DNA from: Octopus vulgaris
Taxonomy: Eukaryota
Length of the DNA: 64,000 nt
Direction of reading: 5' to 3'
NCBI GenBank assembly: GCA_951406725.2
Contig: OX597825.1
Coordinates: forward strand, 62,434,001 to 62,498,000
This document shows, one piece after another, positions 6,962-49,821 of the stretch. Position numbers and translations under genes: made by a program. Position 1 is the stretch's first letter. Each line of letters opens with the position of its first letter. The notes beneath the pieces were generated by a model, which did no database searches, was not told the origin of the DNA, and worked only from the letters and a program-made list of their open reading frames with translations.

Positions 6962-7290
6962 TTGTGTCTGGGAAGAGTCATTTTCTTTTTGTGCCTTATA
7001 ATTTAACACACTCACCAGTAAAATTTCCACTTATTTCTTATTTTTATTTTCCTAAAATTTTCGTTGCCTCTTGCAACCTTTTCAGTAGTCTTCACTCTCT
7101 ATTGAAAAGGTTGCAAGAGGCAAGGAAAACTTTAGGAAAATAAAAAAAAAATAAGTGGGAATTTTACCAGTGAGTGTGTTAAATTATAAGGCACAAAAAG
7201 AAAATTACTCTCCCCGGACACAAAAGAATATGATTCAACACACGGACACATATAAAGAATCTTGCCAACCAAATCCAAAAACGAAATATA
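6962..7290. mobile_element. Fold-back non-coding element with variant HHR-like motifs
   Basis: Inverted arms 6962-7088 and 7099-7223 with a 10-nt loop, between (TATC)n and (TA)n. Minus-strand motif CTGAAAAG-GTTGC-aagag-GCAAC-GAAA. Confidence 0.7.
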
Positions 7291-9017
7291 TATATATACA
7301 CACACACACATGCTCGTATGTGTGTGTGTGTGTGTGTGTATGTATGTGTATGTGTGTGTGTGTGTGTGTATCTTCAATCAATTTCTATTATCTATAAAAT
7401 GGTTTTGATTTATCTTCTTAGTTTTAACACAAGCTACTATAAGCATGCAAACAACCTTATATATGCATATACAGCATGGATCGTCATGGCTATCCTCTAT
7501 TATATTTTACTATGAAGGCTAATGAAATATAATACCAAAGCCAGTAGAGAAAGCATAAGTGAATACACAGGACTGCATGGTTGATGCTTAACACACAATC
7601 TATGATTCTGGTAAAGCAATATTACATGGAAAATATGAATGCAGTCTGAGTTATGTAAAATATAATTCTCTAAAAGACTACTTTGAACTATATTCAGGAG
7701 AGATCAATTATGAAAATATAAAAGAATCAACTGACAGTTATAATTAGGGCCGAACAATTTGTAACAATACTGCAGTGTTTCTGTATTTAAAACAATTACA
7801 TAGTCTGCAAATTGGAAAATGAAGAGGCTCTTGCTTCATATTTTATGGACAGTTGGTAGAGGTGAAGGTGGTAAGAGTAATAGCAGTGGCATTGCTCTTG
7901 TTAGGAATGTTAGTGATTATGGTTGTGGTGAACAGTAATGGTTATACATGTATGTTTAGCAGTGATAGTGGAGCCAATGTTATAGAAAGGGGTGTAGTTG
8001 GTGTTTTGATAGTTACTGCAGAGAGATGTTGGAAGTTATTATATATGCAGCGTTATTACAGAAGTGTGTGCTGTTACTGTAGCTGCTGCTGTTGTGGCTT
8101 TATTTATTATTATTATTTTTTTTTTTTTACAATAGGATGGCATTGTAATGATTGATGTTGGTGGTAGACGAAGTGGTAATAATTATGCAAGGAAACGATT
8201 GCAATGAAGTTTGATGCTGCTGCATATTCGAACGGTCGTGCTAATAGTTTACAGTGATGTAACAGATATTTGCAGCTAATATATAATGTGGTATATAGCA
8301 GAATGCTTCAAGACATGCAGCAGATGAATACTTGGTATGATTGGAAGAACAGTTGGCACAGTAATGTTGTATAGGATCAATGTAATCATGTTGATTGCAT
8401 TGACGATACACTGTTAGCAAGATGGTTCTAAATATGATTGCATACAGAGGATATCGCAGTTGGTATCATTGAGTGTGCAACTAAAAGTGTTGGCCTATTT
8501 AAGCTAAAGAAGTGGTTGAAAGGTTGCAAGTTGTGATTAAAGTTAATTGATGGGCAGAAACATTTCATTTTGTAAATGTATAACTGAGCCTGGACCAATT
8601 AAATAGTCGGTATCATATATGATAAGTTCTGCAAAAGGTGATGCAGAACATCCCCTACAGGAGATGTTTCACAAAGAATATCATTACATTAAGAAGCAGA
8701 TGCATTAGTCAACATAGAGGAAAAGAAAAAAGAAAACCTGAAAAAAACGAAAAAGGAGAGCAATTATGCAAGTTTCTATTTCCATGTGGAGGAGCATTCC
8801 TATATTTCTTTGATTTATTTTAATATCTTGAAATGTTACTATTGACATGAAGGACAATTGGATCTGTTGGCAACAATATCACACACGTACACACATATAC
8901 ACAGACACAGACACACACACACACACACACACACACACACTATCATACACAAATACACACACACACGCACGCACACACTACATATGCATATATTATGCAT
9001 ATTATATGTATTCATAT

Positions 9018-9222
9018 CAAATTTTGGCACAAGGCTGGCAAGTTCAGGGTAGGGGCTGAGTCAATTACATCAACCCTAGTAGTCAACTGGTACTTATTTT
9101 ATTGATATTGAAAAGATGGCAGGCACAGACAACCTTAGCAGAATTTGAACTCAAAACATAAAAATGGACAAAATGTTGCTAAACATTTTGCTTGGCACAC
9201 TAGCAATTCTGCCAGCTCACTG
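9018..9222 (-). mobile_element. SINE family B
   Basis: Reverse complement of the family B head and Meta-like domain. Confidence 0.7.
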
Positions 9223-9714
9223 ATATATATATATATATATATATATATATATATATATATGTGTGTGTGTATGTGTGTATGTATGTATGTATGTATGCAT
9301 GTATGTATATATATATATGTATGTATATGTATACATATATGTATGTATGTGTGTGTATATATATATATATATATGTATATATATATATATATATATATAC
9401 ATATATATATATATATACATATATATATATATATATATATATATGCTTATATATATATACATATGCATATATATATATATATATATACCTACATATGCAT
9501 ATATATATATACCTACATATGCATATATATATATGTTTTTCAATATATCAATTTGATCATCATCACCATTGCCATCACTATAGTGTCTTCTTTTCCATGC
9601 TTGGAGTTTACTGAGATGGGATATTCTTCAGCCAATGCCATTCCTGTCACTACATCACCTGCTCATAAGAAAGAATATATGTGTGTGTGTGTGTGTATTT
9701 GTGTATGTGTGTGT

Positions 9715-10215
9715 ACAAGGTGCGTAAGGTATTTGAGGACATACATTTTTGGGGTGTTTGCTGCCTTTTTTACTAACTCTGTACAATATTTGTTTCAGAA
9801 ACTGATAATGGCAGACCTCCAGCTTACTCAATAAATGAAGAGGCACACTGTTATTGTGGTTATAAAGGCTGAGCATAGCAATTTAGAAATATCTCGATTT
9901 TTAAAAGTTGCCAGACTTTTCGTCTACAAAGCCTCTAAGGAGCTAGAGACTGAAGATGAAAATGTATCACCAGCATTAAAGCATAAAAAGCATTCTAAAC
10001 GATCTGAAATCCTTAGAACACCTGAAATTATCCAGCAAGTTCAACAGACTATTGATTACAATCCCAGAAAGTCCATGAGTTCAATTGCAAAAGATCTCCA
10101 TATGTCAGAAGGAAGTCAGAAATGTTGTCCACGAAGACATCAGGTATAAGACTTACATGATGAGGAAACATCAATTTGCCAGAAAAAGCTAAAGAAAATC
10201 ACTACATCAGATAAA
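9715..10215 (+). pseudogene. Tc1/mariner transposase N-terminal (HTH) remnant
   Basis: ORF 9835-10149 (..RTPEIIQQVQQTIDYNPRKSMSSIAKDLHMSEGS) resembles a Tc1-type DNA-binding region; frameshifted downstream. Confidence 0.55.
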
Positions 10216-10339
10216 TGATAGACGGAAGTCATTTGAGAATGATTTGTTGGATTCTTAATGGTGTATCCTTTCTCTATAGTTAGATGTATAACTGCCACTG
10301 GTGAGTTTAGGGGTTCACATACATTGTACAGAAAACGGA

Positions 10340-47570: not shown

Positions 47571-47849
47571 GAGGGGAAAAAAAAGTGAAGAGGAAAAAAA
47601 GATCATTGAGGTCAATGTAATCGATTTACCCACAAAGTCTGTAATTTCAGTGAGGAGTTAAGTTGATTACATTGAACTCAGTGTTCAACTGGTACTTATG
47701 ATATGATGAAAGGCAGAAAAGTTAACCAAGAGTTAATTTCAACTCAAATAAAATGCTGCCATGCATTTTGCCTGGCATGTTAGGGATCCTGCAAGATTAC
47801 CCACCTCATATATATATATATATATATATATATATATATATATATAAAT

Positions 47850-48260
47850 AGGCACAGGGGTGGCTGTCTGGTAAGTAGCTTGCTTACCAACCACACGGTT
47901 CCGGGTTCAGTCCGACTGGGTGACACCTTAGACAAGTGTCTTCTACTATAGCCTCGGGCCGGCCAAGGCCTTGTGATGGAAACTGAAAGAGGCCCATCTT
48001 ATGTGTATATATGTATATGTATATATATATATATATATATGTGAGTGAGTGTGTGTCTGTGTTGTCCCCAGCATCGCTCGACAGCTGATGCTGGTCTGCT
48101 TGCATCCCTGTAACTTAGCGGTTCAGCAAAAGAGACCAATGATTGATAGAATAAGTACTAGGCTTACAAAGAATAAGTCCTGGGGTTGATTTGCTCGACT
48201 AAAGGCGGTGCTACAGCATGGCTGCAGTCAAATGGCTGAAACAAGTATAAGAAATAGAAG
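47850..48260 (+). mobile_element. SINE family A
   Basis: Full head-to-tail match to the family. Confidence 0.85.
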
Positions 48261-49559
48261 AAATATATATATATATATATATATATATATATATACATAC
48301 ATACATACACTGATTTCAAATTTTGGCACAAGGCCAGGAATTTTCTGGGAGGGAAAGAGTCAATTTCATTGCTCTTCCCCTTCCACTGTTCACCTTGTTT
48401 TTATTTCATTGATCCCAAAGGAACGAAAGGCAAAGTCTATCCCAATGGGAATTGAACTCACAATATAAAGTCGAAAGAAATGCTGCTAACCACTTTTCCC
48501 CAGCACAGTAACAATTCTGCCAGCTCACCTGATATATATGTGTGTGTGTACGTGTACGTGTGTGTGTATGTATGCATGTATGTGTATATATATATATATA
48601 TATATATATATATATGTATGTATATGTGTATGTGTGTATGAATATATATATTAAGATATACGTACAGGAATCATTAAAACGAAGATAAATTATTTTGTGT
48701 TGAAAGTGTTGAGTGAATCATATACCAAGATCTTGTCAAAGATTTATGACACTATCTCCTGTCTTTGCCATCATGTTTTGTATGGCATCCTGGTAGAGGA
48801 TAAGGTAAATAAAAAATATGAAACACACGAGCAGAAAGTTGATTGGTTGTTTTCTTTGCTAAGATTGTATTTCCTGACAGAAAAGAGCAGAATGTATGGA
48901 CATGGACAGATGTCAGAGAAATAGATACACAAAGATCTAGAGAATCACATTCATATAAACAACTGCATAGGCAGAATAAATATGCATAAGAAAACCAAGT
49001 GGAATAACCAAATATAAATTCTTTATTAAATCATTTTCAGAATGTCTGATTATAATTTTGTGCCATGCACCATTTTCATTATTATATTTAATTAACTCAT
49101 CAACTGAAGTTGTGTATTCTGGGTCTTTCCAAAAATTATATATTTAATCTTTACTGAATCTTTCTATACAACTGATCTTAACTAACCAGCGCCTTATAAT
49201 CTCTTCCTGATCATCGAGGTATTTCTTTTTTTTTTCTTCATCCACTAACAAATATTGATACTCTACAAAAAAATTCTCTCACTTTTTTATCCAACATGTA
49301 AATCTTTATAATTCCTATTAGCAAATGAAACATAAGTAATAGTGAATAAATTATACCAAGATCTTTTCCAAATTCCTGTTTTGTAATACAACTCTCTACA
49401 AACAATGTTTCCGGAATTTTCAGTTTTAATATGTACTTTGCATATACAGTGCGACAATAGTTACATACTTGATTGTAATTTTGGAATAAGCAGATATGTT
49501 TCAAGAGGAATCAGCTGGTATTTTACACTACCTACCTTATATATATATATATATATTAT

Positions 49560-49710
49560 TTTTTTGCTTATTTCTATGTTCCTTTCTGTTGAAGAGCATA
49601 CGCTCGAAATGTAAAAGACTTTTTCACTTCTCGAGCATTAAACTAATACATCTGTTTGTCGTTTACACACTCATCTTCATCTTTTGTATTGTTTTCTTGT
49701 AAATTCAAAC
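49560..49710 (+). mobile_element. pLTR-like element with variant HHR-like motif, between (TA)n tracts
   Basis: CTGTTGAAGAGC atac GCTCGAAATGTAAAAGAC. Confidence 0.5.
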
Positions 49711-49730
49711 TATATATATATATATATATA

Positions 49731-49821
49731 TATAATTATTAGATTTGAAAATGGAGAGATCTAATAGATACAAGAATTAATTTGTATCCATTAGATCTCT
49801 CCATTTTCAAACTTAATTATA
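49731..49821. repeat. ~90-bp palindrome beside (TA)n
   Basis: TTTGAAAATGGAGAGATCTAAT.GATACAA / TTGTATC.ATTAGATCTCTCCATTTTCAAA. Confidence 0.85.

Follow-up and report, generated by a model that had tools for sequence, protein, structure and literature searches.

The analysed window, a 64,000-nucleotide stretch of the Octopus vulgaris genome, contains six non-coding fold-back elements (E1 to E6), a coding Penelope-like element (PLE) arranged as two head-to-head copies, further fold-backs and a number of hammerhead ribozyme (HHR) motifs (Table 1). The six fold-backs of the original prediction are genuine: arm-alignment scores (208, 347, 88, 202, 208 and 68 for E1 to E6) lie far above the maxima of shuffled sequences (32-48, 200 shuffles each). 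Identity between arms in ungapped columns is 91% in E1, 85% in E2, 82% in E3 (with 10 gap columns), 82% in E4, 92% in the outer arms of E5, 90% in E6 and 98.9% in the coding PLE. Transitions predominate among the arm substitutions, and since the arms are diverged in this manner, E1-E6 are not echoes of assembly; an assembly artefact is ruled out for them. Elsewhere in the window, the 97% palindrome at 33834-33972 may be an assembly artefact. As had been claimed, the six hairpins are unrelated in sequence, with no mutual blastn similarity, and none of their arms matches the coding PLE or is tied to an ORF by sequence.

Table 1. Fold-back elements, the coding PLE and hammerhead motifs in the window
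Feature	Position	Strand	Description
E1, left copy	6956-7098	-	5'-truncated 3' end of a high-copy HHR-bearing family, without tail; HHR-like motif 7052-7088; 10-nt spacer 7089-7098
E1, right copy	7099-7284	+	HHR-like motif 7099-7135; arm to 7226; one-sided tail 7227-7284; (TA)n
E2	19161-19701		Head-to-head fold-back between TA runs
E2, HHRs	19191-19271; 19590-19675	-; +	Decayed type I, about 60-nt stem II region, one per arm
E3	22434-22627		Old, weak fold-back in TA-rich DNA; no credible HHR
E4	38085-38480		Head-to-head; arms 38114-38280 and 38314-38480; about 30-nt candidate tail at left end, adjoining (TA)n
E4, HHRs	38228-38257; 38337-38366	-; +	Intact minimal cores
E5	43247-43768		Composite; arms 43349-43463 and 43629-43743
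E5, second inverted repeat	43247-43282; 43456-43492		37 bp
E5, HHR	43539-43571	+	Single, in spacer
E6	49730-49825		Hairpin with 45-bp arms adjoining (TA)n; no HHR
PLE, longer copy	34821-36731	-	5'-truncated; ORF fragment, 3' UTR, HHR 34929-34958; 66-nt one-sided tail 34821-34886; (TA)n flank
PLE, ORF fragment	36033-36731	-	RT thumb end, CxCx5C linker position, GIY-YIG-type nuclease
PLE, inverted shorter copy	36726-37945	+	HHR 37879-37908; without tail; (TA)n flank
Extra head-to-head fold-back	33933-34432		Between TA runs; half-hammerhead core 34291 (+) in spacer
Asymmetric head-to-head insertion	2118-2438		Short inverted arm mostly tail; same family as 31449-31740
C3-G8 type I HHRs	2808+, 25422+, 34958-, 37879+, 38257-, 38337+, 43539+		Pattern scan
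Solo type I HHR	25422-25455	+	(TA)n 99 nt downstream; no inverted partner
Solo type I HHR	2808-2842	+	TA run 30 nt downstream
HHR-like motif, A6-to-U core	49586-49613	+	Other family copies 47422-47553 and 38774-38840 (minus)

The coding element, predicted to share the inverted architecture of the hairpins, does so, and judged by its sequence it is a 5'-truncated PLE of the Hydra clade. Over 229 aa, its ORF fragment shares 57% identity with P0060, an RT-nuclease protein of 713 aa, and it aligns to residues 483-711 of that protein. P0060 contains the RT YRDD motif; truncation has removed the RT core from the window copy. P0060 displays the RW[K/R], DKT, CxCx5C, CxxC and CxH marks given for the clade in section 11 of PMC8557442. 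The N-terminal region with RWK and DKT is absent from the window and is found in the closest full-length relatives. The CxCx5C linker, the CxxC before E and the CxH after N hold in an alignment of 11 relatives, with two of these cysteines substituted in the window copy. The element has a (TA)n target and a 3' HHR, and its WFNP and VSYSC blocks fit the published Hydra alignment; a Neptune-clade label was dropped in favour of the Hydra marks and alignment blocks (PMC8557442). Pfam and PDB searches with the ORF returned no name for it, the Pfam GIY-YIG model matched one of the 11 aligned relatives weakly, and comparison of the protein with metagenome and genome contigs gave no confirmed loci. A below-cutoff Pfam match of the frame at 62814-63167 was taken as noise.

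Hammerhead motifs are strongly enriched in the window. Pattern scans recovered seven canonical C3-G8 type I motifs, against 0.075 expected per shuffled window (40 shuffles), and one A6-to-U variant (0.15 expected). Inspection by eye added motifs that did not pass the scans: two of U3-A8 type in E1, two with a long stem II in E2 (one core mutation each), three half-cores and one G3-C8-like motif. A stricter covariant-core scan recovered 25422 only; the U3-A8 and G3-C8 motifs are identified by inspection, joined in E1 by the family base at 7085, the mirror site, where U3 accounts for 95% of depth. The right-copy motif of E1 combines the U3-A8 core variant with G10.1-C11.1, as in the family, and a stem I of 3-4 bp. 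The conserved core and stems I-III of the minimal type I HHR are present in seven motifs, including both E4 arms; the E1 motifs have the variant core and short stem I, and the E2 motifs core mutations. Taken together, scan matches and by-eye motifs make the predicted figure of about ten HHR or HHR-like motifs in 64 kb a fair one. The description of the hairpins as ribozyme-bearing applies to part of them: twin HHR-like motifs occur in three of the six and a single motif in one, and the remaining two, E3 and E6, have none, HHR readings there being rejected because they would need several changes. No hammerhead family appears among the 150 Rfam matches listed (of 192), all of which fall below the gathering score and nearly all of which are miRNA families. 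All arm-borne HHRs (E1, E2, E4 and the coding PLE) read outward, in head-to-head orientation, and no tandem HHR units were found in the window.

In seven of the eight scan matches, the cleavage site is followed by a (TA)4+ run at a distance of 30-147 nt; among random positions, 33% have such a run within 250 nt. The proposed TA-microsatellite setting is clear for E2, E3, E4, E6 and the PLE; E5 has short TA runs only. E1 is flanked by (TATC)n on the left and by (TA)n beyond the tail on the right.

E1 is a single member of a family with about 16,800 contigs per DNA run. Contigs of four sequencing runs were placed on it (16,815, 16,911, 7,403 and 2,395; the last, run X11, is only guessed to be RNA and is not counted as evidence of expression). 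Among the 15 joints shown, out of 210 in all, 12 lead from the left arm to the right, each from a different left-arm position, and the remaining three are internal deletions; ten of the 15 land at 7099/7100. Loose ends behind 7089-7098 share one common upstream sequence, visible for 30 letters only, and those before 6956-6962 are long, AT-rich and mutually unlike (agreement about 0.5). The family runs past 7090/7098 and ends at 6956/6959 amid varied AT-rich flanks. The stretch 7227-7284 is part of the family and occurs at one end only, and there are contigs that run from the arm into the tail. In run X1 the arm reaches a depth of about 3.3 million and the junction base 7098 one of 6,309, figures that do not translate into copy number, with reads fitting both arms assigned ambiguously. 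A search of the window for words of the upstream sequence gave nothing beyond one-mismatch chance matches, and the arm pattern had zero matches in metagenome, prokaryote-genome and viral contigs.

The E1 family is thus head-to-head in polarity, with 5' junctions that vary among copies and a one-sided 3' tail at an AT-rich target, and it displays neither the fixed unit boundaries of a retrozyme nor the fixed terminal inverted repeats and interior of a MITE. This is the pattern of independent truncated PLE insertions and not of a fixed-junction replicon. The original prediction had left two options, extremely truncated PLE insertions or self-propagating hairpin retrozyme families; the varying junctions and the upstream continuation support the former, and the latter failed the junction comparison on E1, the sole hairpin so examined.

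Most of the hairpins are therefore likely to be ordinary short back-to-back PLE remnants in TA repeats, with HHR motifs near their ends. Those that bear HHRs are probably short head-to-head insertion products of several PLE families, built like the element at 34821-37945. In such an insertion, a PLE protein would cut both strands of a TA-rich target, and both ends would prime reverse transcription, which would begin slightly downstream of the HHR; a pair of neighbouring start sites would produce the one-sided tail. Both cDNAs would stop early and, we infer, be joined at their 5'-truncated ends, so that the 3' ends face outward. Any arm of sufficient length would then carry an outward-reading HHR, and the spacer would represent the overhang of the longer cDNA. 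Each family would presumably be mobilised by a PLE protein. In vitro, a different PLE cuts and extends both strands at AT-rich DNA, with two start sites making the tail and HHR cleavage dispensable (PMC11167929). Inverted junctions are head-to-head in Penelope insertions (PMC3846280), and the formation of inverted PLE structures has been called unresolved (PMC8557442).

A PLE origin may extend to E3, E5 and E6. These hairpins, with E5 represented by its part containing the 37-bp repeats, could instead be MITEs or local inverted duplications made by repair at TA repeats, unrelated to PLEs, an origin that is quite conceivable if short of probable. E3 and E6 lack an HHR, terminal inverted repeats of 37 bp bound the segment 43247-43492 between TA runs, and annotated MITE families exist in Octopus vulgaris (PMC13282606). 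However, most of the HHR-to-end distances observed here exceed 45-75 bp, so that PLE stubs with arms of this size would lack the HHR as well. Furthermore, a hairpin with 35-bp arms at 33798-33872 is made from the end of a family with an HHR half-core. Nor can such an origin explain E1, with its varying junctions and tail.

The identity of the template is a separate matter. Arms might derive from short non-autonomous, PLE-dependent units rather than truncated coding elements, SINE-like or solo-retrozyme-like, about 200-270 nt long and with the 5' end at HHR stem I. Hairpins would still form singly at insertion, and the reading is compatible with the two-strand mechanism, differing in the template alone; we consider it rather less likely than the truncation of coding elements. 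E1 is very abundant, and 5' ends in its family are concentrated immediately upstream of the HHR core: of four joints to 7099 whose in-between letters are known, three share a 5'-end base, 5 nt before the core. A 5'-end hot spot was rejected as a reading of the 7099 pile-up or the 7072-7098 depth drop alone, the former being partly the start of the reference's plus copy and the latter partly an edge effect. The half-hammerhead copies at 2215 and 31449 begin at an identical point, about 6 nt ahead of the core, and are unrelated in the DNA upstream of it; the former is the long copy of 2118-2438 (core at 2221, plus). Non-autonomous PLE derivatives (PMC8557442) and solo retrozyme monomers (bioRxiv 10.64898/2026.07.22.740005) have been published. 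Against this, E1 relatives and the related half-hammerhead copy at 34291 continue upstream past that point, and an RT stop at the HHR structure would cluster 5' ends equally.

The joining step could also differ. In the self-priming proposed for rotifer PLEs (PMC3846280), a small palindrome lets a single cDNA fold onto itself, and copying from there produces the second arm. In the E1 family, positions 7086-7096 make up a 4-bp mini-hairpin (given the family base at 7093), where one X4 contig displays a perfect fold-back junction, and an allele at 7068/7119, about 4% of depth, is common to both arms, indicating one template or one subfamily. In the PLE the longer copy carries the tail, but in E1 and 2118-2438 it sits on the shorter, spacer-less one, which a simple fold-back presumably could not yield. 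Self-priming appears less likely, and tails on differing copies fit two-strand priming better than one cDNA folding back.

Some E1-family junctions recur. Four of the 32 pieces shown bridge 7098/7099 by at least 31 letters, with 5-8 gaps, and a joint from 7061 to 7162 reaches depths of 2,314 (X4) and 168 (X8), about 45-fold and 25-fold those of ordinary pieces, but has none in X1; by its coordinates it removes the start of the core. It is conceivable, though quite unlikely, that a subset of hairpins is itself mobile, a fold-back formed at the mini-hairpin, immediately 5' of the U3-A8 hammerhead of the E1 family, being transcribed and reinserted whole by PLE proteins in trans. It would be a MITE-like palindrome that retrotransposes and carries a ribozyme motif on each strand, and the recurrent junctions would be daughter copies. 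Least probable of all, and contradicted for most of E1, are hairpin retrozymes, in which the whole fold-back would be transcribed, self-cleaved and reinserted as a unit by PLE proteins: these recurrences and the twin motifs of E1, E2 and E4 are outweighed by the 12 differing cross-arm junctions, a junction at about 0.2% of arm depth, the loss of the core start in the deep joint, arms diverged by 8-18% with core mutations in each E2 arm and the left E1 arm, and the presence of one HHR per strand without tandem copies, where retrozymes need two on one strand, with a core that the antisense arm, transcribed first, is predicted to sequester. When whole elements are folded computationally, the core is base-paired (mean unpaired probability 0.00-0.30), and release of the HHR would cost 39-72 kcal/mol, against 8-11 for two HHRs without the antisense arm. 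Each strand's single HHR is predicted to be buried in the hairpin. At these loci the HHRs are probably passengers. Whichever strand is transcribed, a twin-arm element does carry the HHR sequence, as the original prediction had it, but nothing suggests folding or the release of unit-length RNA.

The preferred reading, back-to-back PLE insertion, has practical consequences. The abundant E1 family offers a large set of natural junctions, and comparing the sides of tail and spacer and the common alleles across them could separate two-strand priming from self-priming. Such hairpins also risk being mislabelled as MITEs or microRNA precursors, considering the miRNA families that dominate the Rfam matches listed. 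A mobile hairpin subset, if true, would be a new class of non-autonomous retroelement.

MITEs are short non-coding fold-backs at TA sites with fixed ends and a fixed interior. E1 copies differ from them in having variable centres and unequal ends. Non-LTR retrozymes (PMC7229834; bioRxiv 10.64898/2026.07.22.740005) are likewise non-coding, PLE-related and of high copy with a type I HHR, but their units are arrayed head-to-tail in tandem, carry at least two HHRs on the same strand and give circular RNA, whereas the window hairpins have head-to-head arms and a single HHR on each strand. Rotifer Penelope inverted pLTR insertions (PMC3846280) and the anole Poseidon mechanism (PMC11167929) share the head-to-head junctions, optional tail and AT-rich targets; the window inserts differ in being only 100-550 bp long and very dense. 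In PMC4209133, pairs of minimal HHRs on opposite strands, 100-700 bp apart, are attributed to truncated PLEs in Schistosoma. The metazoan PLE motifs described there share the short stem I, the extra base after A9, the palindromic stem III, the U3-A8 core variant and the mostly single motifs with opposite-strand dual ones; relative to these motifs, the long stem II region of E2 and the A6-to-U and half-core families are further variants.

A close likeness is to the Hydra clade (PMC8557442), including Hydra-1_Obim and Penelope-13_HM, which is known for (TA)n targeting (26 of the 27 families in File S1), a 3' HHR and inverted 5'-truncated copies; Penelope-13_HM has an attached copy of this kind and an HHR on each strand. 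The window PLE has in common with the clade a C-terminal nuclease and CxCx5C linker, insertion at (TA)n, a type I HHR placed about 100-200 nt before the 3' end, an inverted copy truncated at its 5' end and a one-sided tail, the latter of 66 nt against 30-40. By eye, its HHR flanks and stem III resemble those of Hydra-2_aMil, and the E4 motifs resemble Hydra-clade rows of File S2, the likeness of the E4 and E5 HHRs being one of pattern only. The HHR differs from that of Hydra-1_oBim, so the window PLE represents a different family. On the best reading, the window is known biology at high density, comprising additional PLE families and natural hammerhead variants.

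The original prediction of six fold-back elements (E1–E6) holds for all six, with arm scores of 68–347 against shuffle maxima of 32–48, and blastn confirms that they are mutually unrelated in sequence. Arm identity is 82–92%, and transitions predominate among the substitutions. These hairpins are real, far exceed chance, and are most probably known insertion debris of several families of Penelope-like retrotransposons (PLEs), the junctions examined being those of E1. The window has a GC content of 35%, abundant microsatellites and repeat signatures resembling those of octopus DNA, and further fold-backs and solo hammerhead ribozyme motifs (HHRs) occur in its other parts. 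Between 42% and 67% of the words of 34821–43844 are present in public runs carrying four species labels. The 97% palindrome either arose by recent inverted duplication or is an artefact of assembly. SINE-like repeats are dispersed in both orientations and give rise to long-range inverted pairs, which are unrelated to the hairpin finding. Among three mobile-element fragments, one has a weak endonuclease-RT Pfam match (E 0.003); frames in two resemble pieces of mariner-type transposases, with no curated Pfam match.

Features of the window, with positions and main characteristics
Feature	Position (strand)	Characteristics
E1	6962–7223	U3-A8-type motif at centre of each arm (by inspection)
E2	19165–19701	decayed HHR core in each arm; long stem II region
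E3	22446–22615	no HHR found
E4	38114–38480	intact minimal HHR core in each arm
E5	43249–43743	composite; single HHR, in spacer
E6	49731–49821	no HHR found
Coding PLE	34821–37945	two 5'-truncated copies, 98.9% identical
Old fold-back	23044–23265	score 87, shuffle maximum 33; scattered HHR-like half motifs
Nested palindromes	33782–33972	35-bp-arm hairpin of family 3' end; 97% palindrome centred in (TCA)n/(ATG)n
Half-hammerhead family (part of HHR core)	2215–2438, 31449–31740, 34287–34432	stem I, CUGAUGA and stem II conserved
Head-to-head junction of two different families	31320–31446 (minus), 31449 (plus)	both end in (TA)n
U6-core HHR-like family	49577–49711 (plus), 47422–47553 and 38774–38840 (minus)	U replaces A; all three copies end in microsatellite
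CUGAUGA, GAAA close by	42272–42289 (plus)	no convincing stems
Mobile-element fragments	46312–47004 (minus), 30785–31111 (minus), 9835–10149 (plus)	
SINE-like repeats	17390–17797, 20317–21694, 42953–43237, 52301–52536, others	many

A type I HHR scan of the window returned seven canonical-core motifs, against 0.075 expected, and one additional A6-to-U variant. Every arm-borne HHR in E1, E2, E4 and the coding PLE points from the centre outward, and a TA run lies 30–147 nt past the cleavage site in all scan matches except that of E5 (7/8). By this shared polarity and the position of the TA runs, the hairpins are miniature versions of the coding PLE layout. The U3-A8 variant has been reported previously (PMC4209133), and the U3 base is the majority state of the E1 family (95% of depth). 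All three half-hammerhead copies that extend far enough lack GAAA, stem III and the cleavage site, and the two closest copies (86%) have a common start, about 6 nt ahead of the half-core. In the minus-strand family at the 31446/31449 junction, an HHR-like motif whose core is of the G3-C8 type can be seen by eye; it failed the scan, its stem I being cut. The junction may reflect two-template priming or nested insertion. The motif at 42272–42289 is probably a chance or decayed one.

The coding PLE does have the predicted inverted architecture, its two copies lying head to head and terminating in (TA)n; only the left end carries a tail (extra terminal sequence), of 66 nt. Over 229 aa, its frame at 36033–36731 (minus) is 57% identical to the C-terminal end of an RT-nuclease protein of 713 aa. 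Relatives of this frame contain the CxCx5C linker, CxxC and CxH motifs, and full-length relatives also RW[K/R] and DKT, the set by which the Hydra clade is defined (PMC8557442, section 11); the Hydra alignment of that paper agrees with them. According to Files S1 and S2 of the paper, 26 of 27 Hydra families have (TA)n targets; the files also include families with 3' HHRs, and one octopus family is among those listed. One Hydra family has an inverted 5'-truncated copy with an HHR on each strand (PMC8557442).

Alignment of E1 (6952–7284) to contigs of four sequencing runs at an 80% likeness threshold gave 16,815, 16,911, 7,403 and 2,395 matching contigs. Contig ends running past 7089–7098 share one common sequence, which indicates that the family extends upstream and that the longer copy overhangs to form the 10-nt spacer. 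Ends before 6956–6962 are long, AT-rich and mutually dissimilar, which identifies this position as the 3' end of a sequence that has inserted in many places; 7227–7284 is E1-family sequence present on one end only, and hence a tail. Among the 15 joints listed of 210, three are internal deletions and 12 link the left arm to the right from 12 different positions, ten of them reaching 7099/7100. The junction base had a depth of 6,309 in run X1, where the arm reached about 3.3 million; these values are no copy number, and edge effects lower them at the junction. The variable junctions and upstream continuation of E1 make up most of the pattern that the original prediction named as its refutation, which would reduce the hairpins to PLE truncation products rather than self-propagating families.

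Some results speak against this reading. Nearby junctions do recur, since 4 of 32 listed pieces bridge the E1 junction with few gaps. A recurrent cross-arm joint, 7061 to 7162, reaches about 45 times ordinary depth in run X4 and 25 times in X8, and is not listed in X1; it likely formed at a short T run, without the beginning of the HHR core. Of four resolved joints to 7099, three begin 5 nt before the core, and the shared start of the two half-hammerhead copies is a similar case. Recurrent junctions and 5' ends near the core could stem from stalling of the RT, or from microhomology, at the HHR structure; other possible sources are short templates of a non-autonomous kind and a small subset of hairpins that replicates. 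Such a mobile subset is improbable.

In the anole, the PLE protein cleaves AT-rich DNA on both strands, extends both, and begins reverse transcription at two internal sites (PMC11167929), which would explain the tail. Priming from both target ends would place copies head to head, 3' ends outward. Self-priming, in which a single cDNA folds back (PMC3846280), is a live explanation for some copies, as the two arms of E1 have a rare allele in common and one junction is a perfect fold-back. The tail, however, lies on the longer copy in the coding PLE and on the shorter in E1 and at 2118–2438, which favours two-strand priming.

As regards action as a retrozyme, each strand of a hairpin holds one HHR, its complement being transcribed first. 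In predicted, equilibrium-only folds of whole E1, E2 and E4, the core was mostly paired in all six strands, and freeing it would cost 39–72 kcal/mol, against 5.6 for the E5 spacer HHR and 8–11 for two HHRs folded without the antisense arm. A minimal PLE HHR was inactive as a monomer, and insertion in vitro still took place when the HHR was mutated (PMC11167929).

Our literature search, with subscription papers and Repbase outside its scope, found no publication devoted to such cephalopod hairpins, and the available part of PMC13282606 lacks the words 'hammerhead' and 'hairpin'; supplements of bioRxiv 10.64898/2026.07.22.740005 could list relevant families. Tandem HHR units are the defining feature of retrozymes (bioRxiv 10.64898/2026.07.22.740005), whereas the window hairpins carry a single HHR per strand. 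Dual minimal HHRs on opposite strands, 100–700 bp apart, have been ascribed to truncated PLEs (PMC4209133).
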